A stretch of 63,547 bases of DNA, the filler included, from Collodictyon triciliatum (Eukaryota): NCBI GenBank assembly GCA_043381765.1. It is 56 parts of 56 records of this genome, joined end to end, with 100 filler letters (N's around TTAATTAATTAA, not from the genome) between each part and the next. Parts side by side here need not be neighbours in the genome. Positions count along the whole stretch, not along the records: positions 2,284 to 3,324 come from JBHJMP010012567.1; 55 more parts are not named here. The stretch is one strand, 5' to 3'. Under the pieces are notes generated by a model. The model was not told where the DNA came from and did not search any database. It saw only the letters and a program-made list of their open reading frames with translations. The position numbers and the translations under genes are program-made. Shown here piece after piece: positions 145-63,481 of the stretch; the first letter of the stretch is position 1, and each line of letters begins with the position of its first letter.

Positions 145-388
145 TGTAACAACTGGAATCCCAAGTGCGTCCTTGGAATCTGTGATCTGATTCTAAGACC
201 CATCTCGGAATTCTCCAAGTATGTTCTTAGAATCAGTCCAAAGAACCACCGTGGACTGCTCCAGGAACCTTCTCAGAAACCTCCCCTGAACCCTTCGTCC
301 AGGGGATATTTAACGAGTCCGTCGACTCGTTAATAGGTTGAGAATCATAAAGCAAGCCCATAGCAGAATAAAAGGACATCCCCATACA
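145..388 (+). mobile_element. 3' LTR of the chromovirus (~244 bp)
   Basis: Starts TGTA right after the PPT, contains AATAAA at ~367 and ends TACA at 388. An unrelated LINE RT frame resumes immediately after. Confidence 0.72.
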
Positions 389-390
389 CT

Positions 391-1042
391 GACTGCCTTG
401 CAAACCACTTCCGAAACGAAAACAAGGCACGCGACCAACTACTACTTCAATATGCAGACGACGCAGCTTTCATATTGCGGTCTCCCGAAGGCGCCACACT
501 CGCCAACAAATGCATGCAAGAATACACACGAGCTGTTGGCGGGAAAATCAACTATGAAAATATAGATGGAATTCTTTTTGGGTTTCAGGATGGACTTATG
601 TTTCCAGGAAACATTGTGTGGAAGCCACCGTCATATCCACTCAAGTATCTTGGCATCATCTTCGGTCCACAATCGGATAGCAAATGGACAAGCCTGGTTG
701 AGGACATCAAGTCGAAAATATCAGTGCGGAGCAACTTTCATCTCTAGGACGTGGCGAAAGTAAGGTTGTGGAACCAAGTGATGTTGTCGACCCTTATCTA
801 CAACATGAAAGGCACTTTGCTGAATCCCCAAAGGCTGAAGGAGCTGGAAGATATCCGCCGCAACTTCATCACTACGAATAATCAAAAATATAAAATCAAG
901 ACGCTCTCTAAGCCACCTACAGAGGGAGGACTGGGACTCATAACGCCTGGTATTGCATGGACATCGCTCACGATGAGATGGTGGACAGATATGCTTACCC
1001 ATCCGAAAGGATTCTGGCAGCGTGGAATGTGGCATCTCATCC
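391..1042 (+). mobile_element. Non-LTR retrotransposon (L1/Tx1-like) reverse transcriptase, domains 5-7 and thumb; interrupted
   Basis: LQYADDAAFIL (YADD at 451), GGKINYEN, KYLGIIFG and LSKPPTEGGLGL are all in one frame, with one in-frame TAG at 745-747. Confidence 0.9.
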
Positions 1043-2149: not shown

Positions 2150-2285
2150 TAAAAAAAAAAAACACCCAAAAAAAAAAAAAAAANNNNNNNNNNNNNNNNN
2201 NNNNNNNNNNNNNNNNNNNNNNNNNNNTTAATTAATTAANNNNNNNNNNNNNNNNNNNNNNNNNNNNNNNNNNNNNNNNNNNNAT

Positions 2286-3272
2286 CAAATCAGTACATGT
2301 TATCTTACATATGATGTTGTTCGTATGGCTCCAGAATATCATCAACAGCTGCAGTCAAGTATTCAACGAGGAATTCCCCTGCAAATTCCGTACAAGACTT
2401 GGAGAACGTCTATGTACAGCTTACCATCTGGTCAACAAACGCTACATGTTTTTAATATCAACGATACAGTTAAATCACTAAATGCTGTGTATATTGCGTT
2501 TTTCAAGCAGCGAGAGCAAGGCACATTTTTGGTTCCTGGCAAAGATAGAAAGCACAAACCCCCAACACTTGTTGACGCCCAGCTTCAGCTTGGTTCGTTT
2601 TATTATCCTTTGCAGCCAATGGATTGTGAAGGAAATGCACCCCAAGCATTCTTGGAGCTGCAAAAGGCGCTGGGTCTTACTCACGTGAGAAGTGAATACA
2701 CTGGGCCATTCGGGTTTGATGGCCGAAACTTTGTTGGAAATTATTTAAATAATAGACAGAATTTGCAAACAGCATAATTTTCAATAACTGTACCTGAACA
2801 AGCTGCTAATGGAGCTGCGCAATTTGTTACTAGCCCGGCAACCATAGTAGATGATAATGGTACGGCACTAAACGGACCAGTGTTATCAGCTTCTCGAGCT
2901 GCCAGTAATGCAGCTCAAGCTAAACCCGCGTTCACTTCTACTATTAATGCAAATACAAATCATAGCGCTTTCGAGTTCACTGCTAATGCAAGTGATGTTA
3001 CATTGGACATAAAAAATTATTATCGATGCGCTTGCCAAGGACCTGCCAGTGAATTTATGATTGGCTTCAATCTCCGTAAGGTGCTTGATGCAGTCGAAGG
3101 GGAAATAGTCGGTACAGACATTCAGTCATCCGGTAGCGGTTTAATGTCATTGCGATTAAATTTCAATGCTGCTATTGGTGACACTGACGGGCCGTACAAT
3201 ATCATTGTTGCATCGCTATATGACGCTGTCCTCGAAATTCAATCCAACCAGCAGACTTTCCGCGTAGAATAA
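2286..3272 (+). CDS. Polinton-like virus (PLV) major capsid protein, C-terminal half; one in-frame TAA at 2775-2777
   Basis: ORFs 2325-2777 and 2880-3272 share a frame that is open from 2286 apart from one TAA. Motifs resemble the PLV double-jelly-roll MCP C-half: TVKSLNAVYIAF, AQLQLGSFYYPLQP, QAFLELQKALG, FMIGFNL, GTDIQ, LRLNF, terminal YDAVLEI. Intronless. Confidence 0.78.
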
Positions 3273-3288
3273 AATATTTATATAAGTA

Positions 3289-3324
3289 ATGGAACCGATT
3301 ACAATAATCTCATTACTTATGACT
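3289..3324 (+). CDS. Start of a small hydrophobic ORF (MEPITIISLLMT...) just downstream of the capsid gene, truncated by the contig end
   Basis: ATG lies 16 bp after the MCP stop, a virus-like compact spacing. Confidence 0.45.
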
Positions 3325-4377: not shown

Positions 4378-6049
4378 TGTATGTATGTATGTATGTATGT
4401 ATGTATGTATGTATGTATGTATGTATGTATGTATGTATGTATGTATGTATGTATGTATGTATGTANNNNNNNNNNNNNNNNNNNNNNNNNNNNNNNNNNN
4501 NNNNNNNNNTTAATTAATTAANNNNNNNNNNNNNNNNNNNNNNNNNNNNNNNNNNNNNNNNNNNNCAATTCAGCGTACTTGTCAAGCCCCGATTGAAGGC
4601 AGTTGTGTGTTTCAGATAAACATGAAGATCTACTTGGTATGGAAGCTAACTCCATAGATCATACACATCCACCCATGTATATTAAGGAAAGGCTCAACCT
4701 GCAGGGAGCTATTTTTGAAGATAGTTCTGAATGAAAAAAAGAAGATCAATAAGTTTCTATAAAGTCTTGGTTACTAATAATAAAATATCAAAGGAAAAGA
4801 TATGACTGGATTGAATTAATAAAAAGCACATCAAGATGACAGTGAAAACAACAACAAAAAAACTGGTAAGAGTGTGAAAAAGATCGAGATAAATATTGAA
4901 TAGAATAGAAAAAATAAAATAGTAACATATGAGAAGAGTATATATGTGTGTAAATTGTAAAATCAAATAACGAATAATAAAAAGAACTGTTGTGAGAAGG
5001 TTACAAGGAGAAGAAATATACTTAGAGAGCACATAGCGAAGAATAAAGAATATAGGTGAAAAAAGAGAATAAAAACAAGAAAGAATGAGATGATGGTCAC
5101 AAATCATGTCAGCAAGTATGAAAAGAATAGAAAAAAACAAGAGAACAAAAACGAAGAAAAGAATGTATGCTTTGTGATTGGAAAAAAGAGAAAAATATAA
5201 CAATAAGAATGTTAAAAATCAGAGCAATAATATACAAACAAAACATAATGTTAATATCTATTTACAAAAAGAAATGTTCAAATACATGGAAAAGCCTTCT
5301 GAAGGTGCTGCAGTCTATAATGTGACATTATAGTTCTACCATTGGAAACCAGGTTCATCTCGAATAGGAAAGAAAATATCAATATAGAAATATTACTTTG
5401 GCAATATGTTCTTTGAATATATTAGAATATGATTAGGATGAACAAAGCCCTGCCGGCCGGTCAAAAATGTGAAGCGAGATGAACGGTTCATCCCAGGTTC
5501 ATCCCAATTTACTAATGCCGGCCGGCGGGGCCATGTACTGCAGGTATTAGAAGTGACAGAGAATTTTCGGAGAGCCACGGATTTTCTCACGGCATGTCCA
5601 TGTTTGNNNNNNNNNNNNNNNNNNNNNNNNNNNNNNNNNNNNNNNNNNNNTTAATTAATTAANNNNNNNNNNNNNNNNNNNNNNNNNNNNNNNNNNNNNN
5701 NNNNNNTGTTGTTTTGTTGTTTTGTTGTTTTGTTGTTTTGTTGTTTTGTTGTTTTGTTGTTTTGTTGTTTTGTTGTTTTGTTGTTTTGTTGTTTTGTTGT
5801 TTTGTTGTTTTGTTGTTTTGTTGTTACTTTGTTGTTGCTTTGTTGTTGCTTTGTTGTTGCTTTGTTGTTTTTTGCTGTTGCTTTGTTGTTTTTTGCTGTT
5901 GCTTTGTTGTTTTGTGGCTAAACTACCCGGCCACTTTATGCCTCGAGTGCAACGAAACACAGCGCAAGCAGCACACCAGCCAGAAAGCAAAGTTGGTTTA
6001 GGGGGGAGCACAAAGAAGAAGAAAAGCGACGAACAAAGACGGAGCAGGC

Positions 6050-6592
6050 ATGTCGTTCAAGACTACGCTGCGCTTCTTGGACACACCTCCCGAGAGCCGC
6101 CGCTGCTTCCTTCTCCACCGTTCTGATGCGAAGTCGGCCTCCCTTGCAAAGTCTGCTGCAGGGTTTGTCCGACCAGCGTTACTTTCCGGCAACAAAATAC
6201 TCGACTTGTGCTGATGAGCCGTGTGTCTTCTTCGTGAGAGATGCTAAACAATCGACAGGCTTCTCACACCCCCGCACACACACCACACACAGATTCCTGG
6301 AGCGGATGTTTGGCATAAAGTCTTTCATGGCAGACACGTCGTACACGCCAAAGTCACAAGGTTTGGACATCTATGCAATTCTACAGAATGCTCTTCGGCT
6401 CTGGCGCTCTGTCGTTGGTTTCGTCTGTGTAGGTGTTGATGCAGTTATGATGTAGATGAAATTATTGATGTGGGACTTGCTGTGTGTTTTGGTGGAGATG
6501 GAACACTATTGCATATGAGCAGAGTATTCCAGCATCAGTGTCCGCCCATCCTCTCTGTTTGCACGGGATCTGTAGGATTCATGATGGGAAAT
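6050..6592 (+). CDS. NADK: NAD(+) kinase, 5' exons
   Basis: Spliced frame MSFKTTLRFL...|FLERMFGIKSF...|DEIIDVGLAVCFGGDGTLLHMSRVFQHQCPPILSVCTGSVGFM carries the GGDGT and GSxGF NAD-kinase motifs. GT-AG introns keep the frame. Confidence 0.85.
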
Positions 6593-6609
6593 GGTGCTTG
6601 GATGAACCA

Positions 6610-6711
<102 letters not shown>

Positions 6712-9125
6712 AAAGGCAAAAAGATGATTTAAACATATGACGAAATNNNNNNNNNNNNNNNNNNNNNNNNNNNNNNNNNNNNNNNNNNNNTTAATTAATT
6801 AANNNNNNNNNNNNNNNNNNNNNNNNNNNNNNNNNNNNNNNNNNNNAAGTGGAAAAGCAGAAAAGCAGAAAAGTAGAGAAACAGAAAAAACATGGTAGAG
6901 AGAATTGCTTACCAGGGCCATCCTTCCTGAAAAAGGTGGATAAGGCAAGGCCACAGCAGTTCCCTCACACTCCTTTGTAAATATCCAGAAGCAATTTATG
7001 TTCGTGTATTCAGCGCAAGCCGAAAAGCGGAGAGATAAGATGCAAGGGCAGAAAGTCCAAAAAGATTTGGCGAACGCTGTTTGGCTTTTCAGGACTTCGG
7101 TTTAACCAGACACAAATGTTGGTTCTCTTTTCTTTTCTTCATCAAGCATCATATTCATTTTTTAAAAAAATTAACAAAAAGTAAGCTTTTAAAAAAGCAA
7201 TTGCGTGCAAGCAAGGTTCGGGGCGGTCTGTTATCAGGCGTTTTCTGTTTCATGCGGCCTTTTTGGGTGCTGTGGGTTTGGTATTACATCTGTAATCAAG
7301 GGACCTATGCATATGCTTTGGTTATTTGCTTTATAAATCATGGCGTCTTACTCGTCCGGTGTCATTGCTGCGATGAAAACATAGTTATCCCACTCAAGGC
7401 CTTATGTGATACAAGAATTGCTCCTCGCTATGTTTTTAATTACAGAAACGAATCGTCCTTTATGAAAAGAAAAAAAACCAAATATCTGTCACTGTATCGT
7501 ATACTCACGAAGTAGCATACAAAAAGTCATATTTATGCCATTATGATGGTATTGCCACCCAAATTGTATATCTATTATTCATTTTATGTAATTTCCAGTT
7601 TAGTGCCACAATCGATCATTCGATTGTCTCATGATGCTTTTCTTTTTTGCGCTTAACTAATCAGCAATAAAAGCGCATTGCGACACAACATACAAGAAAC
7701 ACACACGAGGCACGAGACCTGTGAAAGTAACAACGAGCGGCAAAGCGGCAAAGCGGCAAAGCAGTCGAGGCGCGAAAGAACGAAATGGTCGCAACGCTTT
7801 TTCAACTCGAGATCGAACACCATTAAAACAACGCACTATTTTTCTTTCTATTCAGGCTCATCACACTTCGCCCAACGCAGCAAGCANNNNNNNNNNNNNN
7901 NNNNNNNNNNNNNNNNNNNNNNNNNNNNNNTTAATTAATTAANNNNNNNNNNNNNNNNNNNNNNNNNNNNNNNNNNNNNNNNNNNNTTTTTTGTTTTTTG
8001 TTTTTTGTTTTTTGTTTTTTGTTTTTTGTTTTTTGTTTTTTGTTTTTTGTCTTTGGTCTTTGGTTTTTGGTCTTTGGTTTTTGGTTTTTGGTTTTTGGTT
8101 TTTGGTTCTTGTTTTTTGCTTTTTGTTTTTTGGTTCTTGTTTTTTGCTTTTTGTTTTTTGTTTTTATCCTTTTGTTTTTGTTTTGTGCTTTTTTCTTTTT
8201 TGGTTCTTTGTTTTTTTATTTATTTCTTTTTTCTTTTTGCTTTTTTTGTTTCTTTGGCTCTTTCTTTTTGAGGTATGCTCAGGCGTTGAACGAAGCGAAG
8301 CGAAGGGCGTGTCATCTCTCTTCTGTTGTCATCGCGGTTGCATCCTCGGCAGATGAGCGATACAGACGCAGTAGTCAGTAAAAAATTGGTGATCATTTTA
8401 TCTAGGTGTCATTATATTATTACAAAAATAGGGTATTTAATGTTTTGAATAGTCAGAGAATCGTTACACATACTTTTGTAAATAATTATACTATATTTTC
8501 CAGAATTGAACACCTATCACAACCTTATCCACAAGCCAATCCATCTAACAAACCGTGTTTATTTTTAGCCTGTCTGATTCACGCAGCCTTCGTATTGAAA
8601 CAACATAAAAAAGTTCGTGAATGGCAAAAGTATTGCTACACACGAAAACCACAAACGACCTCAGAGAAAGCTGGACAGGAAATACGCAAACGACACCGTT
8701 TCACAACGCAAATCTGTCAACCAAGCCTGCGGTGGCGCACAAGGGCAACTACAAATGGCGATGTGAAGTTGCAAAGCACGAAAGATGAATGCTGGATGCA
8801 GAGGATTTGAGCTTTCGTCGACAATAACAGACATCCATTCAAGTCTATGGGGAAATGTCTTTTCTCTCTCTCTCTCTCTTTTCTTTTTTCTTTCTTCTGC
8901 CAGTAATTCTATGATGTTGTCCAGGCTAAAGAGAGATAGCCATGCCTGCAAAAACACTGGTATTTGGGGCAGAAATATTGTATGATTTAGAAAAGATGAA
9001 TGAATAGATAAAGAAGAGAAGTAAANNNNNNNNNNNNNNNNNNNNNNNNNNNNNNNNNNNNNNNNNNNNTTAATTAATTAANNNNNNNNNNNNNNNNNNN
9101 NNNNNNNNNNNNNNNNNNNNNNNNN

Positions 9126-9620
9126 AGTGGTGAATCCATTGAGCACACATTTGTGCAATGTCCCGTCGCTCAAAACCTGTGCGAAACAGCCGGTGAGATT
9201 CTTCGACTGACACTCAAGACGGCTGTAGCTGTTGGCCCAATCCAGGCGATATTTGGCCCTCTGCAACAGCTGCGTCCAGAGGCAAAAAAAATTCTGGGCA
9301 GTGACGCGAGGCCATTTGATATGGACTATGTGGATAGCACGCACATAGTCACGTAAGGCAAGACTCAACAACCAGCCACCCATTCCCGATAATAGGCTGG
9401 ATGACATCATACAAATCTCCTTCCTCAACAACTTTCTTCGCCACCTGCACGTTCTCTCCTACTCAGACCCTGTGAGAAGAGACACGTGGAAAGAAGCTAA
9501 GAGATTCAACCTCGCCTTGTATTTCTCATGCAAGCACAAGACCCAGAACACAGGCCAAACCGCAGGATGCAACTCCTGATTATCGACTACTTCTCCGCCA
9601 CCCGGCCACCAGGTAGCGTT
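9126..9620 (+). mobile_element. Degenerate LINE ORF2 C-terminus (zinc-knuckle region), copy 1
   Basis: ESIEHTFVQCP (ExxxHxxxxC knuckle) and a WTMW..R motif, with frameshifts and a TAG at 9346. Closely similar to 14821-15330. Confidence 0.8.
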
Positions 9621-11635: not shown

Positions 11636-12250
11636 CTCCACCAATAACAAACACGTTTTCAATCTCACGCTTATATTTCCCCAGAGAAACAAGTTCATGG
11701 GCATCCTCAAACGATGCTGCAACTTCAATATTCGGATTCCTGTTAAATTAAGAGATTAAATGATGAATAGGTGAATATAAAATAAGCTAAAAATAGTTGG
11801 TAGAAGATGAGATTCGCGTGGACAAAATGCAAAATATATTTACGCAGACGAATAACATATACATATTGAGGAACATCAAGTCATTATAGCATCTCTTAGA
11901 AGTTACTGTAAGCATGAGTAAATGGTCATTCAACGACGATACTCACTTGTCGGTGTTGGCAAATGTGCTGCTGATAACAACATTGAGCCGATTCGGAAGA
12001 GGCCTGCGGTTGAGCGGAATCGAATCCCACGTTTTGCGACCCATGATGATTGCATTGCGCTTTGTCGCATCGGCCACGACGCTTGTCTTTGTGCGAAAGT
12101 GGCTCAAGTCGCCTGGCAGAGACCACGGAAGAGTGCCGTTCAGCCCGATGCCGTTTGCTGACTCAGTGGCCGCAACGACTATCTCGAAGTCTTTCACTGT
12201 GCGCCGAAGTGGGGTGTTGCGAAAGTGAGAAGATAGAATTGCGCGACATA
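11636..12250 (-). CDS. DHFR: Dihydrofolate reductase (N-terminal exons; start not resolved, TS fusion not determinable)
   Basis: IVVAA..NGIGLNGTLPWSLPGDLSHFR..T, NAIIMGRKTWDSIP..RPLPNRLNVVIS. Second exon 11636-11739 reads NPNIEVAASFEDA...IENVFVIGG. Confidence 0.95.
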
Positions 12251-12350
12251 TCCTTGCTTTTTGTTTTCTTGTTTTCTTGTTTTCTTGTTTTCTTGTTTTC
12301 TTGTTTTCTTGTTTTCTTGTTTTCTTGTTTTCTTGTTTTCTTGTTTTCTT

Positions 12351-12442
<92 letters not shown>

Positions 12443-55713: not shown

Positions 55714-56746
55714 CGAGTTGTTGATTAGCTATATCAGCCGCTCGTTGGGCAGTTCGGGCTTCTAGTTGTGCGGTGTGTAATTCAGCATGTAGCTCTGCGA
55801 TTTCTTCAGTTAGCCGAGTGACTTCTGCTCTCTCAGTTTGTAAAGACATATTAGCTCTGTTTATTTTGAAGTTGTCTCTAGCTGTATTTGCTCTGATAGT
55901 TTGCTCTGCGGCCTGTTTTTCAAACTGGCTTCTTTGTAATTCCAGATTTAGACGGACATTTTCTTGTTCTAAACCTTCTTTTCGATTACGCAAGTCTTGT
56001 AATTCAGCTTCTAGTCTGGCAGCTGTACCCTGGTCACCTAGTTGTGCCTGTGGTCCAGTGGCTTGTCTTTGAGCTGCTTGTAATTGAGCTTCAAGTTTTC
56101 TGATTTCTAGTCTCGCTTTTATTAGGTCTTTGTTACTTTTTTGTACTTGCTGCGGCGAAGGGGGGGGTGATATGTTAGCAATTGGTACAGGTTGATTATC
56201 TGGACCAAAAAGAGTACGACGAACAGCAGGCCTATCAGCAGGTTCCTGAATACGTACTCTCCTTCGTTCAATAATTTCTTGTTTTGTTTCGGCTGACATT
56301 TTTGGCTTCCACGGAACCATAGCTAGCGATGGAGCTGGAGCTTGTGACGAGACTGATGTTGTATCTGCGGGCTGTTGTTCAGTTGGATCGGCTGTCTGGG
56401 GTCTGCGCAGGGGTTGAGTAAAATCTGTTATGTCTTGACCGATGGGATTTAGGTCTACTGCACCAAACAGTTCTCCCTGACTACCTGCATTATCGGAAAG
56501 TTCAGGTGGTTTCAGAGGATCTGGTACTGTTGCATTTCCGAAAAAAGGTTTAGGTATTGCAGTAATTTGTTGTACTTGACCGCCTGCATCTTGTATACCT
56601 TGTATAAATAATTGTCGAACGTCTTCATTTTCGTCAGCCATGATTGCCTCATTTATTTGATCATCTCCAATTCCCACAGGAGGTCTGGGCGCAGATTGTG
56701 TTAACAATGTATGTGTCAAATCAAAGATTTTATATTGTAGTTCACC
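55714..56746 (-). CDS. Unknown intronless ORF, P/Q/A-rich with C-terminal coiled coil, virus-like
   Basis: Frame open across the entire contig. Same architecture and codon style as 51177-52210. Confidence 0.55.
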
Positions 56747-60243: not shown

Positions 60244-61162
60244 GGGTGTCTCCTCGATTACTAGAATTTTGGTCTTTTTTTTCTTGGGCTTCTTTCCAAC
60301 AATTGTTGTCAGTGGTCGGAATGAATTGGCATAAGCCAGGGCGTTGGCTTTTGCGTTGGCCTTGATTTTAGGATCGACTTTTGCTTTACCCTCAGATTCA
60401 AGGCTGATGTTGCTATCAGATTCATCAAGGTCGATGCACAACGGCTCCTCTGTTCGCAAAATCGGCTCAGATTGTTCTCTCCCGCGAGCAGCAGAGCCTA
60501 CATCTTTCAAAATATTGTTTGGATTTAATTCTGTATTAATTGGGGCTGGGGTTTCAATATCTTTTTCACATGAACTAATTCGTGCTTGACAATCATGACA
60601 GCGAGTGGCTGCGGTTGTCTTCGTCGGAGATTCAGTAGGGGTTTGCGTAGACATATCCGTCTTCAAAGTGAGGTTTGATTTGTGGAAATAGAACATTAGT
60701 TTCTGCTGCCTCTCCTCGTGGATAGAATCTGAAGATTGCTGCGACATGGAATCAAGGGAAGCTGATTCTGGATTCTCAAGGACAAGTTGCCTGGAGTGAT
60801 TTTTTAACGACGGGGTGCTGACTTTCTGTAGTCGAGAGAAGTTTTCATCCTGTTGAGAAGGTCCCAGAGTTTGTTGAGTCCTTTGCTCATGGCAAATAGG
60901 AACTTCTTTCGCCAATGAATCCTTGCTATATGGAAGGTGAGACACTGAATTTTGAATATTAGCATCAGGCTTGTAAACGGGTTGCTTTTGATGATTGAGA
61001 GGGTGTAAAATGGGGGGCTCAGGTGGTGGCATCCAGATGGCGGTTGCTTGACCAACGGTAGAGTTGCTCCCTTGGTTAATCTGCCGATATTGATTGGCTG
61101 CTCGTGTAATCGATGGGTTCGGAGAGGGAGTCAGATTCCCCTGTCCCAGTTGGGCTATCACC
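60244..61162 (-). CDS. Long low-complexity exon, product unknown
   Basis: About 300-codon open frame after a CAG acceptor. S/P/Q-rich, ending in a Lys cluster. Confidence 0.45.
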
Positions 61163-63481
61163 TGCTCAAGAAAAGATGGAGATATCTGGGATGAGGCAGA
61201 AGGGATATTACCTTGGCGCTCTCCCTGGAAGTATTGAATGGGCTGAAAAGCGTACTGAATGGATGAAGCACCAGTCNNNNNNNNNNNNNNNNNNNNNNNN
61301 NNNNNNNNNNNNNNNNNNNNTTAATTAATTAANNNNNNNNNNNNNNNNNNNNNNNNNNNNNNNNNNNNNNNNNNNNTTTTACTATGAGACTCGCTTATAC
61401 ATATCATTCAGAAAATATCAGGATTCTTTTTTTTTTTTTTTTTTGGAAATTTTGAAACTGGATTTTTTTTTTAAAAAAATGAGGGACAGAAAATCAAAGA
61501 TAAAATTTTTCGATATATATTAGGTAAACTAATATAAATCTACAAATAAGAAATCACATTTTGAAATGAAGGTTCTATGATGTTTATCAAAAGCAATTTG
61601 CATAATGCTCAATTAATTTATGGGGGTATTGAGACGAAAGTAGAATAAAGCTAGTACATCATTTCGTGACAGGAGGGTATGTCATATTTAAAGGATTTTT
61701 CATTCTATAGAAAGGAAATTGTACTCAATTTAATTATCATCATTCACAATACAACTGATTAATACTTTCCAGGTACAATGTTAAAATAACACACCATAAA
61801 TGAAAACACTAAATGGATAGCACGCACATACACACGCCTCGGAATTTTCAGTTACGACCTATTAATAGCCAAGGATAAATGATAGAATACTAACATTTTT
61901 CATTTAAAGCTTCCTTATTCATCTCCAAGCTCTTCATTTCTCAGAGCCTATGAAAATACACATGCAAAAAGAGGTCCATAAAGGTAATTAATCACACTTT
62001 ACTTTGTGTTAAATAGAAACCCCGGTTAAGGGCCAAACCACGTATTCAATTCATGATAACTTATTCATTCTCCACCAATATGCCCCCAATCATCGTTCTC
62101 GTAAATGAAAGCTAGAGAGCCAAGGCAAACGCTTCCGTTATCTTGCACAAAATTTGTAAGGAATAGTAGAAAATTAAGATAAGGCTCGGAAAAAAGGTTT
62201 TTAATTTATTTAAAAACGACATGAAGAGATAAAAGGAAAAATATTTGATGAAAATTGCTGGAACTATATGTAATGTCATATCAGTAAAAAAAGAGCAAAA
62301 AAAGAGTAAAAAAGAGTAAAAAAAGAGTAAAAAAAGAGTAAAAAAAGAGTAAAAAAAGAGTAAAAAAAGAGTAAAAAAAGAGTAAAAAAGAGTAAAAAAA
62401 AAGAAAAAAANNNNNNNNNNNNNNNNNNNNNNNNNNNNNNNNNNNNNNNNNNNNTTAATTAATTAANNNNNNNNNNNNNNNNNNNNNNNNNNNNNNNNNN
62501 NNNNNNNNNNCCAAATGGAGGACGTTTACCGCTCGTGGGACTTTCTGAAGATCGACGATCCAAGCACACTAACACCTCAGCCGCTGCGCTTTTCGCGACG
62601 TCCCGGCCCCGATTTCTCTCGTCGGACTGAGACTGCTCCCGCTCCTGCCATCGTATTGCCTCATTTTATTTTATTTTATATTTTATTTTATATTTTATTT
62701 TATATTTTATTTTATATTTTATTTTATATTTTATTTTATATTTTATTTTATATTTTATTTTATATTTTATTTTATATTTTATTATATTTTATTATGCTCA
62801 ACACATGCTATATTTCTGTGGTGGGTTTCTATTCCGTGCTTTTGTATGCCATATTAATTTTACTATTGTTTTATATCTTTATATTCTATATTCTGTTTTT
62901 GTAATTTTGTTTTTAACATTTCCTTAAAATCGTATGCTCATCTGCCTTTTCTTTTCTTTTTCTCGTATTTTGTGAATGGGCTGAAGTAACATATCTAACT
63001 TTAATGCAACGATTCTGACTATCGTACGCCTCAGCAGCGCCGAGTAATACACGTGGAAGCAGATATTCTTCCTGAACTGCCCGCAACTGCCCGCACACGT
63101 CCTCCGAACCATGTTGACACTTTTAAGAATGTCGAGGAATTCGGCTATGGAAAATGGAGTGTTGGTTTCCATCCCTTTTTACTTACGTCTCATCATTATC
63201 TTTATAGACTTTACAAAATTTACAATGTCCGGTAGAAATCATATCTTTTTTTTTTTTTTACAAAGGAAGAAAGTATGTTATCTTAATAAATTTTGATTGT
63301 AGGAATATGGTAAACAGGACAGACCCGGCTCTGCTCCATTTCACAAAATCCCTTACAGTCCGTCGAAACGTCGTGGGTATGACATTGGAAAAGCAAGGCA
63401 AGATGTACTTCAGGTTTGTGTCTTCTTTTTCTTTTTCTTTTTCTTTTTTGTTTTCTTTTTTGTTTTCTTTTTTTTTTGTTT

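Follow-up and report, generated by a model that had tools for sequence, protein, structure and literature searches.

A 1-kb contig of the Collodictyon triciliatum assembly carries part of a capsid gene from a polinton-like virus, probably co-sampled with the organism

The DNA analysed here, hereafter the window, is a stretch of 63,547 nucleotides from the Collodictyon triciliatum assembly GCA_043381765.1, composed of 56 separate contigs of about 1.03 kb with N/TTAATTAATTAA spacers between them. Because the window consists of separate contigs that were joined, the one at 2284-3324 has to be read as an island without linked neighbours. Three of the 56 contigs are viral: the one at 2284-3324 is viral sequence from its first base to its last, and the coding parts of the other two are likewise viral. 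The features recognised on these three contigs are the following.

2286-3269, plus strand: C-terminal part of the capsid gene, about 327 codons or about 59% of the gene, open at the 5' contig edge and with one in-frame TAA
2736-3050, plus strand: hypervariable insertion of about 105 codons, with low column conservation
2775-2777, plus strand: in-frame TAA at residue 164, an extra codon position without counterpart in relatives
3270-3272, plus strand: TAA stop codon of the capsid gene, at the same aligned end (...E followed by TAA) in 10 of 10 relatives' loci
3273-3288, plus strand: conserved intergenic, A/T-rich spacer that separates the capsid gene from the next ORF, nearly identical in the relatives' loci L001, L002 and L003
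3289-3324, plus strand: first 12 codons (MEPITIISLLMT) of the next ORF, a conserved ORF of 44-52 aa, the rest of which is cut off by the contig end
34163-35194, plus strand: piece of a fibre-like protein, 344 codons, open at both ends, rich in T, N, G and S, from the same virus type
38704-38901, minus strand: first 66 codons of a small ORF, counterpart of the ORF located just upstream of the relatives' capsid gene
38899-38919, minus strand: W5TCT promoter-like element, 18 nt before the ATG of the small ORF
38934-39737, plus strand: divergently oriented ORF, 268 codons long and running off the 3' contig end; by position, the putative N-terminus of a large protein of 1015-1393 aa

The initial annotation described the first of these features as an intronless frame of about 330 codons that encodes the major capsid protein of an endogenous polinton-like virus (PLV). 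The motifs quoted for it (KSLNAVYIAF, QLQLGSFYYPLQP, ELQKALG, FMIGFNL..GTDI..LRLNF and YDAVLEI) are all found in the translation of 2286-3269, and many of the residues in them are invariant across the family alignment A1. The open frame is thus genuine, but it cannot be called intact because it is interrupted by an internal stop and truncated at its 5' end. The frame is open up to the first bases of the contig; since full-length relatives measure 510-552 aa, only about the last 59% of the capsid gene lies on it. The ATG at 2325 encodes a conserved Met inside the protein (RMAPEY) and is not the start of the gene, and translation with table 11 yields two ORFs, 2325-2777 and 2880-3272, because of the in-frame TAA at 2775-2777.

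None of the 21 full-length homologues of A1 and none of the six closest relatives has a residue in the alignment column of this TAA. One metagenome contig that diverges from the window at 2765 continues in frame with no stop, and another (X4 record 19) covers the position of the TAA, over 2619-2843, with 15 differences from the window. When compared with L001, the frame gave a dN/dS of 0.057 over the 163 codons before the TAA and of 0.31 over the 164 codons after it, and both halves have evolved under purifying selection. The in-frame TAA falls within the hypervariable loop and reflects either a nonsense mutation of recent origin or an error in assembly or sequencing; it is not a recoded codon. 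As to the region downstream, the ATG located 16 bp past the stop codon, at 3289, which had been pointed out as a new start, is a genuine one: it opens an ORF of 44-52 codons that is present 3' of the capsid gene in nine of ten relatives' loci (eight complete, one with the start only) and absent in L011. The residues MEPITIISLLMT are identical to the first 12 of the same ORF in L001 and L002, and the N-terminal stretch of this ORF is hydrophobic.

The search for relatives gave 34 homologues of the capsid fragment, the best with an E value of 3e-157, 76% identity and 99% query coverage, well outside what chance would give, and all belonging to an unnamed protein family whose full-length members have about 510-552 aa. 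The metagenome contigs that carry full-length relatives reach 17,215, 17,173, 16,905 and 14,837 bp, and a further one of 17,175 bp comes from a cluster member. More distant relatives comprise 385 representative clusters at E <= 1e-3, and these are homologous over the full length in hhalign comparisons (A1 vs A3, E 1.3e-62; A1 vs A4, E 1.7e-68). In a quick tree the window joined the homologue P0002 and L001 (SH-aLRT 93) within a clade of 12 rows (SH-aLRT 99), with an end branch of 0.25 against a median of 0.16. The family has no match in Pfam, PHROGs or NCBIfam. In particular, no Pfam model rose above its cut-off in 147 distant representatives or in the five family members scanned (the window fragment and four full-length proteins); Capsid_N appeared below threshold in two of the 147 (E 5e-4 and 3e-3), and neither the window fragment nor the four full-length members reached the gathering cut-offs of Capsid_NCLDV or Capsid_N. 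No relative was found in the copy of IMG/VR searched, whether by family patterns, by a DNA pattern of the downstream small ORF or with the outgroup protein P0042. The exact names of five relatives' contigs were likewise absent from one supplementary file of Bellas & Sommaruga that was searched. The same supplement lists other contigs of the same metagenomes as virophages.

The insertion at 2736-3050 is the most variable part of the protein, with a column conservation of 0.29-0.47 compared with 0.57-0.94 elsewhere. In the hhalign comparison of A1 with A3, residues 377-470 of P0002 were left unaligned, and the insertion is absent in the distant relatives of about 400-490 aa. None of the four metagenome runs mapped covered positions 2844-2983. 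The insertion may face outwards, as a loop or tower on the second jelly roll.

Concerning the fold, the ESM Atlas model of P0002, a 76%-identical homologue whose model includes the N-terminal half not present in the window fragment, has a pTM of 0.72 and matches viral clusters with TM values of 0.62-0.71 over 390-427 residues. One of these clusters is named 'Double jelly roll-like domain', with PF21738 in 87% of its members, and another has members that carry Capsid_N and Capsid_NCLDV. In profile searches against the PDB, A2, a widened and mixed profile of 95 sequences, was the only one of A1-A4 to match a capsid chain (8h2i_bu, 'MCPv1', E 1.4e-4), over the first jelly roll; we take 8h2i to be a chlorovirus capsid. 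A1 and A4 found no match in the PDB, A3 found only two weak non-capsid matches, and the window fragment alone had no significant PDB sequence match. The P0002 model and the A2 match together argue for the double-jelly-roll (DJR) capsid fold expected of a PLV. The initial annotation had named a fold other than a jelly roll, or cellular best hits, as the results that would speak against it; the modelled fold appears to be a jelly roll and the best hits are viral or metagenomic.

Additional information came from the gene content of the relatives' loci. The most informative of them is L009, of which 11.8 kb of a 16.4-kb contig were seen, and whose capsid protein is only about 47-50% identical to that of the window. 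This locus encodes, at 1857-2579 on the minus strand, a packaging ATPase of the PF04665 Pox_A32 family (E 1.5e-9, 38.1 bits for a cut-off of 22.8), which also matches the PHROGs 'terminase large subunit' phrog_2666 with an E value of 4e-12. An FtsK/HerA-type (A32-like) ATPase is one of the hallmarks of PLVs, and it was found in the relative L009 only; none of the window's contigs carries one. L009 also encodes a 267-aa ORF that resembles viral DUF5901 clusters in Atlas structural matches (TM 0.79-0.83). L007 has a conserved counterpart of it (30% identity, E 9e-26), and sequence searches of Pfam and the PDB gave no match. We consider this DUF5901-like protein a candidate penton on the basis of its predicted structure; no mention of 'DUF5901' was found in the literature searched. 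A 737-aa fibre-like ORF and a possible primase complete the set seen in L009. The ATPase, the penton candidate and the primase-like gene thus all come from this relative and none from the window. The accessory genes seen in the relatives are fibre-like, GIY-YIG and possible primase genes, and neither pPolB nor an integrase turned up in the parts examined. No protease domain was present in the ORFs of L002, L007, L009 and L010, with 4.6 kb of the 16.4-kb contig lying outside the view.

The surroundings of the capsid gene are also characteristic. In the relatives there is a small ORF directly upstream of it, and beside it is encoded a large protein of 1015-1393 aa with coiled-coil, low-complexity or proline-rich sequence. 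Furthermore, a W5TCT element precedes 19 of 30 genes of the virus group, at positions -18 to -21, compared with 5.4% of background windows. This element, about 18 nt before the ATG, may be a shared, promoter-like driver of the virus genes.

The two other viral contigs of the window can be read against these loci. The fibre-like piece at 34163-35194 is 42-55% identical to the 737-aa ORF of L009 (E 4e-21); it also matches a 359-aa ORF of L007 (E 1e-9) and has no Pfam match. The small ORF at 38704-38901 is 86% identical to a 119-aa ORF of L005 and 28-52% identical to those of other loci. The ORF at 38934-39737 resembles the neighbouring ORF of L005 only weakly (E 4e-4) and has no homologue among the longer proteins; it is gene order alone that makes it the presumed N-terminus of the large protein. 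Three further contigs with 344-codon ORFs (51177-52208, 55715-56746 and 60244-61275) had no significant match to the relatives' large proteins (best E 0.14). Since the small ORF is 86% identical to L005, whereas the capsid fragment is 62% identical to L005 and 79% to L001, two strains are suggested, and the viral contigs of the window probably derive from both.

PLVs go back to the definition of Yutin et al. 2015 (PMC4642659), which Bellas & Sommaruga 2021 (PMC7805220) expanded; PgVV/Gezel-14T and the Tetraselmis viruses are cultured members. The identification of the fragment as a PLV major capsid protein is supported by the relatives of about 15-17 kb, the gene set of L009, the Atlas matches (TM 0.62-0.71) and the match between A2 and 8h2i. 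The contigs of the relatives (the longest ones of 14,837-17,215 bp) lie within the published range of 10-41 kb for PLV genomes. The morphogenetic triad of DJR capsid protein, candidate penton and A32-type ATPase is seen or inferred in the relative and not in the window. A capsid protein only distantly similar to those of giant viruses, accessory genes of fibre-like, GIY-YIG and possible primase type, and abundance in lake metagenomes are also common to PLVs and to the window's virus group. In contrast to known PLVs, the window's capsid family has no Pfam model and is absent from the IMG/VR copy searched, and its group may also differ in the hypervariable insertion of about 95-105 aa and in the adjoining coiled-coil or proline-rich protein of 1015-1393 aa. 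It should be mentioned that this is a placement by fold and gene content.

Other groups of eukaryotic elements share some of these traits. Giant viruses (Nucleocytoviricota) have the same predicted DJR fold, with a weak profile similarity in the first jelly roll (E 1.4e-4), but the cut-offs of Capsid_N and Capsid_NCLDV were not reached and the context is of about 17 kb instead of hundreds of kb. With Polintons/Mavericks there is one structural neighbour in common, a 'DJR-like domain' cluster from eukaryote genomes (97% Eukaryota, mostly Arthropoda); in contrast to them, the examined parts of the relatives contain no pPolB or integrase, and there is no sign of integration.

With these elements, the reading that we prefer, at a probability of about 0.6, is that the contig at 2284-3324 is a genome fragment of an uncultured small dsDNA virus of the PLV kind (Preplasmiviricota), co-sampled with the organism as a mixture of at least two strains whose reads were assembled into 1-kb scraps, the TAA being a nonsense change or an error. 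The capsid protein would form the trimeric, pseudo-hexameric capsomers of an icosahedral shell, the hypervariable insertion of about 105 codons (2736-3050) would occupy the exposed top of the capsomer, and pentons would close the shell, which the ATPase would fill. In the sample, the strains could have been free particles or inside a co-sampled protist.

The occurrence of the contig in public data is relevant to this reading. Parts of it occurred in 20 public runs belonging to 15 studies, with word shares of 0.07-0.39. The labels of these runs are freshwater, lake, aquatic, aquaculture or subsurface metagenome, where a label is given; among the 24 runs listed none came from the sequenced organism, and among those listed none holding parts of the contig was an RNA run. 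In the four runs that were mapped, conserved parts of the contig were matched by identical pieces, among them 2315-2474 and 2445-2557, each with 0 differences. Most likely, at least two strains of a lake-dwelling virus were present together in the sample at low abundance.

The term 'endogenous' could not be upheld, since no virus-host junction lies on any of the three viral contigs, the runs with parts of the contig and an organism label are all aquatic or subsurface metagenomes, and the relatives recur at the size of a free genome. That the contig is an integrated PLV of the sequenced eukaryote, one of several divergent copies whose decay has begun with the nonsense codon, is nevertheless the strongest of the other explanations, and we regard it as rather unlikely. 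An in-frame TAA in an otherwise conserved gene is what a decaying copy would show, the assembly holds at least two divergent versions of the virus, a fragmentation into 1-kb pieces fits many divergent integrated copies, and PLVs integrate widely in protists, as stated in passages of PMC7805220. Against this, the three contigs carry no host sequence, dN/dS is well below 1 on either side of the TAA, and the end branch of the window is not unusually long. Furthermore, parts of the contig that are identical over conserved stretches recur in lake and aquatic metagenomes of many studies, and the relatives assemble at a recurrent size of about 17 kb, typical of free genomes. Taken as a whole, the results fit a co-sampled free virus and integrated copies in a widespread freshwater protist alike.

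The origin of the capsid gene in a bacterial or archaeal DJR virus (tectivirus-, PM2- or FLiP-like) present in the sample would be compatible with a small genome, with the match of the ATPase to phrog_2666 and with the Uroviricota label of some Atlas neighbour clusters. We find this origin very unlikely, since the capsid protein is unmatched in PHROGs and NCBIfam, tblastn against 50,697 phage records gave no match, no relative appeared in 185,579 prokaryote species represented by one genome each, and the ATPase scores above the Pox_A32 cut-off. In addition, a length of about 530 aa is large for the DJR capsid protein of a prokaryotic virus, and an A/T-rich promoter followed by a very short leader is a typical arrangement in cytoplasmic eukaryotic DNA viruses.

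Virophages (Sputnik, mavirus; Maveriviricetes) are similar in genome size (about 17 kb) and have the same kind of morphogenetic module. A cluster of rank 7 among the Atlas feature neighbours, with Sputnik_MCP_1st or MCP_V20_C in 29% of its members, would also favour a virophage capsid gene. A single short promoter-like element at a fixed place before most genes is another trait shared with virophages; Sputnik and mavirus use the late promoter of their giant virus, according to passages of bioRxiv 2022.07.28.501842. A virophage is required to have the hexon, ATPase and protease of virophage type, as stated in part of Roux et al. 2023 (PMC9952930). However, the models PF21915 and PF22031, used as proxies for the published virophage HMMs, were unmatched in the window fragment, in four full-length members and in 147 distant representatives, the structural neighbours are capsid clusters of NCLDV or polinton type, and there is no cysteine protease within the 11.8 kb of L009 nor any maturation protease in the parts of the relatives examined. 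A virophage instead of a PLV is for these reasons highly improbable.

The weakest proposal, a ciliate-type code in which TAA and TAG stand for Gln and the frame is intact, could appeal to the conservation on both sides of the TAA at 2775 and to the polinton-like element Tlr1 known in the ciliate Tetrahymena (in part of PMC11161782), but its probability is practically negligible and it was rejected, since the capsid genes of the window and of 10 of 10 relatives all stop with TAA at one and the same conserved C-terminus, with the conserved spacer and the next ORF behind it, the in-frame TAA is the only one among about 1,000 viral codons of the window, whose other viral ORFs (344, 268 and 66 codons) have no in-frame stops, the relatives' capsid genes lack internal stops under the standard code, and the TAA column is a gap in every aligned relative.

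Returning to the co-sampled PLV, the results have some wider implications. As it stands, a eukaryote assembly contains scraps of a common lake virus, and the main value of the case is a caution against labelling such contigs 'endogenous'. Most virus lineages of this sort are known from metagenomes alone, and their hosts are unknown; a physical tie of the contig to the sequenced organism, if true, would provide a host for one of them. A more ambitious proposal, which we hold to be unlikely, is that the fragment represents an undescribed freshwater PLV clade with genomes of about 17 kb, characterised by an uncurated capsid family, the insertion of about 100 residues, a neighbour protein of 1,000-1,400 residues and W5TCT at -18, at least two strains of which live in, or are integrated into, the sequenced eukaryote or an attached protist; on this proposal W5TCT would imply that the virus, like a virophage, borrows its transcription machinery from a giant virus. 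Of specialist interest, if upheld, would be the promoter-like element at a fixed distance, the hypervariable insertion in a capsid protein and the huge coiled-coil gene adjoining the capsid gene.

The frame at 2286-3269 shows, at the sequence level, a similarity to other proteins that goes beyond chance. When the window fragment was searched against 5.8 billion proteins, 34 of 1,473 candidates matched at E <= 1e-3; the best (E 3e-157) covers 99% of the query at 76% identity. All 34 are annotated as "hypothetical proteins", with neither a name nor a Pfam domain. Their source contigs reach 17,215 bp, and the longest (14.8-17.2 kb) are about as long as the entire genome of a small virus. A profile made of the 21 full-length members and the window fragment recovered 385 representative clusters at E <= 1e-3 among 1.84 billion representatives (70 at <= 1e-10, 11 at <= 1e-30), and profile-profile comparison gave full-length homology with two sets of distant proteins (E 1.3e-62 and E 1.7e-68). 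Pfam, PHROGs and NCBIfam had no match for the window fragment or the full-length members. Likewise, no Pfam model reached its cut-off in the 147 distant representatives scanned (93 + 54) among the 150 matches listed, the set leaving out P0007 (scanned with the full-length members), P0013 and P0035; Capsid_N appeared below threshold in two of the 147 (P0178, E 5.4e-4; P0183, E 3.1e-3). No relatives were found in phage records, prokaryote genomes or the IMG/VR copy searched. Polinton-like viruses (PLVs) are reported from lakes in their thousands. These viruses are known as a kind; the capsid family itself is without a curated model and absent from that IMG/VR copy. The relatives' contig names do not occur in one supplementary file of Bellas & Sommaruga, whose other files, or later catalogues, may list them.

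Three lines of evidence point to the frame being part of a double-jelly-roll (DJR) capsid protein: the ESM Atlas neighbours of P0002 (the homologue 76% identical to the window), a match to a solved structure, and gene context. The Atlas's own model of P0002 (pTM 0.72) has viral clusters as structural neighbours, with TM 0.62-0.71 over 390-427 residues; in one of them PF21738 DJR-like_dom is present in 87% of members, and others have members with Capsid_N, Capsid_NCLDV or DJR-like_dom. The feature neighbours of P0002 (0.96) are also viral, Preplasmiviricota being the commonest label among the nearest. A widened profile of 95 sequences (A2) matches the solved chain 8h2i_bu "MCPv1" with E 1.4e-4 at profile positions 67-227, within the N-terminal half that is absent from the window. 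Since the narrower profiles A1, A3 and A4 found no capsid chain among solved structures (PDB), this link is thin.

As for gene context, the relatives are encoded at eleven metagenome loci (L001-L011). Of the 16.4-kb contig that carries L009, 11.8 kb belong to this locus; the capsid protein encoded there shares ~47-50% identity with those of the family, and the genes of L009 are, in order:

Genes of locus L009
Gene 1: presumably a candidate primase-like ORF (motifs by eye)
Gene 2: packaging ATPase, 240 aa (Pox_A32 PF04665, E 1.5e-9, above cut-off)
Gene 3: 267-aa protein, Atlas model similar to viral DUF5901 clusters (TM 0.79-0.83), conserved in L007
Gene 4: 737-aa T/N/G/S-rich fibre-like protein
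Gene 5: 6026-9592(-), opposite strand, 1,188-aa coiled-coil, proline-rich protein
Genes 6-8: 114-aa ORF, capsid gene, small downstream ORF

The 267-aa DUF5901-like protein is taken as the candidate penton. L002, L007 and L010 likewise have the large ORF, the small ORF, the capsid gene and the small downstream ORF as a block. Yutin 2015 (PMC4642659) and Bellas & Sommaruga 2021 (PMC7805220) define PLVs by a packaging ATPase together with the capsid protein and a minor capsid protein. The initial annotation had proposed a PLV major capsid protein, and this identification is supported by the DJR-type fold evidence and by the relatives' gene set (capsid, penton candidate, ATPase), which is the PLV-defining one, as seen in L009 rather than in the window and with a putative penton. 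In contrast, virophages are defined by Roux 2023 (PMC9952930) through a virophage-type hexon and a protease, neither of which was found in the relatives' gene set, seen in L009 for 11.8 of 16.4 kb.

Beyond the observed homology, gene context, selection and distribution, we infer by analogy with DJR viruses how such a virus could work. The capsid protein would trimerise into pseudo-hexagonal capsomers tiling an icosahedral shell, pentons would close the vertices, and the A32-type ATPase would pack the ~17-kb genome; the hypervariable insertion of the capsid protein would face outward, and attachment would take place through the fibre-like protein.

Several other features of the loci should be mentioned. 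The large protein (1,015-1,393 aa) adjoins the small ORF and the capsid gene at L009 6026-9592(-), L002 2-4180(-) and L010 121-3165(-), and its gene takes up between one fifth and one quarter of a genome of 17 kb. It is mostly Gln-rich coiled coil, with ~400 residues of Pro/Ala/Gly repeats also present in L009, and its weak conservation is confined to the C-terminal ~200 residues; no Pfam domain was above cut-off in L002, L009 or L010, the L010 ORF giving sub-threshold matches only. Downstream of the capsid gene in L007, at 6075-6266(+), there is a sub-threshold GIY-YIG nuclease fragment (E 5.7e-4, 20.6 bits vs a cut-off of 22.6). Beside the primase-like ORF of L009, the intergenic region 670-890 forms a nearly perfect hairpin with 65-nt arms, 89% complementary (DNA folding, -60.2 kcal/mol, z = -13.4 vs shuffles), which may be an origin-like structure.

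Of 30 genes in this virus group, 19 have a promoter-like element, W5TCT (five A/T bases, then TCT), whose first base lies 18-21 nt ahead of the ATG, mostly exactly at -18; it was seen in L002, L005, L007, L009, L010 and at window 38899-38919(-). Its background is 5.4% of random 35-nt windows from the same loci; in the window as a whole, motif plus ATG shows hardly any enrichment (8 matches where 4.3 are expected). Sputnik and mavirus reportedly use the late promoter of their giant virus (bioRxiv 2022.07.28.501842), and the CroV late motif is TCTA (PMC13196603). By analogy with these cases, W5TCT may be a hint of dependence on a giant virus.

Regarding the capsid frame itself, all the motifs quoted in the initial annotation are found in the translation of 2286-3269. 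Its single intronless frame of ~330 codons stood in part: ~327 codons translate as described, but an in-frame TAA interrupts them at 2775-2777 (residue 164), and the 5' end is missing. Read with the standard code, the interrupted frame falls into two ORFs (2325-2777 and 2880-3272). On its 5' side the frame stays open up to the contig's first bases, and full-length homologues have 510-552 aa, so that the C-terminal ~327 codons, or ~59% of the gene, are all that the contig holds; the ATG at 2325 encodes a conserved methionine inside the protein. The gene actually terminates with the TAA at 3270-3272, at the same position in 10/10 relatives' loci. The new ATG noticed after it, at 3289, is real and opens a conserved ORF of 44-52 codons (MEPITIISLLMT...). 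This small downstream ORF follows the capsid gene in nine of ten relatives' loci (eight complete, one start only; absent in L011), and the window's 12 codons of it are identical to L001 and L002.

The same virus type is found on two further contigs, hence on 3/56:

Viral ORFs on the other two contigs
34162-35196: fibre-like ORF, one open 344-codon frame, T/N/G/S-rich; E 4e-21 to the 737-aa L009 ORF, homologous to a 359-aa L007 ORF
38703-39737: N-terminal 66 codons of the small ORF that relatives have upstream of the capsid gene; 86% identity to L005's
38703-39737: divergent 268-codon ORF in the large protein's place, with Pro-/Glu-rich low-complexity parts

The capsid fragment shares 62% identity with L005's and 79% with L001's. 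Where the capsid identity of other locus pairs is close to 60%, their small ORFs share 28-59%. The contrast between 86% and 62% suggests that contigs 2284-3324 and 38703-39737 are probably from different strains.

The TAA at 2775-2777 falls in the opening part of a hypervariable stretch (2736-3050), where column conservation is 0.29-0.47 vs 0.57-0.94 elsewhere and which distant relatives of ~400-490 aa lack entirely. In the alignment column of this TAA, none of the 21 full-length homologues and none of the six closest relatives has a residue. Purifying selection acts on both sides of it, dN/dS vs L001 being 0.057 before and 0.31 after. A ciliate-type sense reading is contradicted because the gene ends with TAA in the window as well as in 10/10 relatives; it is also opposed by the window's other viral ORFs (344, 268 and 66 codons), which have no in-frame stop. 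Given the gap column, the selection and the contradicted ciliate code, this TAA is either an error or a nonsense change of very recent date.

The gene had also been called endogenous, for which there is no positive evidence; integration into a widespread freshwater protist would still be compatible with the results that follow. The capsid contig is viral over its entire length. Parts of it recur in 20 public runs from 15 studies (word shares 0.07-0.39), all of them freshwater, lake, aquatic, aquaculture or subsurface metagenomes or unlabelled, and none from a named organism. In four runs, short contigs match the window exactly over conserved parts (e.g. 2315-2474 and 2445-2557, 0 differences), and the hypervariable middle has no cover in any of the four; a microdiverse population of an environmental virus gives this pattern. 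A quick tree built on 32 rows (partial sequences P0004, P0013, P0014, P0033 and P0035 left out) places the window with P0002 and L001 (SH-aLRT 93) inside a 12-row clade (99), and the window's end branch of 0.25 vs a median of 0.16 gives no sign of a long decaying branch.

Rather than a single piece of chromosome, the window (63,547 bases) is a row of 56 unlinked contigs, each 1,029-1,042 bp long, with N runs around a TTAATTAATTAA spacer between them; the capsid contig (2284-3324) is the third of them, and neither of its window neighbours is physically linked to it. A tRNA gene at 50368-50439(+) is the sole Rfam match at gathering score within the window. At 47776-48807(-), a 344-codon intronless frame encodes WD40 repeats and, after them, five cysteine-rich repeats of the Ephrin_rec_like type (E 4e-34). 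Three more contigs carry one 344-codon frame each, open at both ends and of disordered or coiled-coil sequence (51177-52208(+), 55715-56746(-) and 60244-61275(-)), with no Pfam match and no significant likeness to the relatives' large proteins. Candidate reverse-transcriptase-/LINE-like frames on two contigs (364-744(+), 17101-17568(-)) and a candidate dihydrofolate-reductase-like frame on a third (11946-12440(-)) were recognised by eye. Microsatellites and homopolymer runs occur on many window contigs and, with the reverse-transcriptase-/LINE-like frames, fit a repeat-rich eukaryotic assembly.
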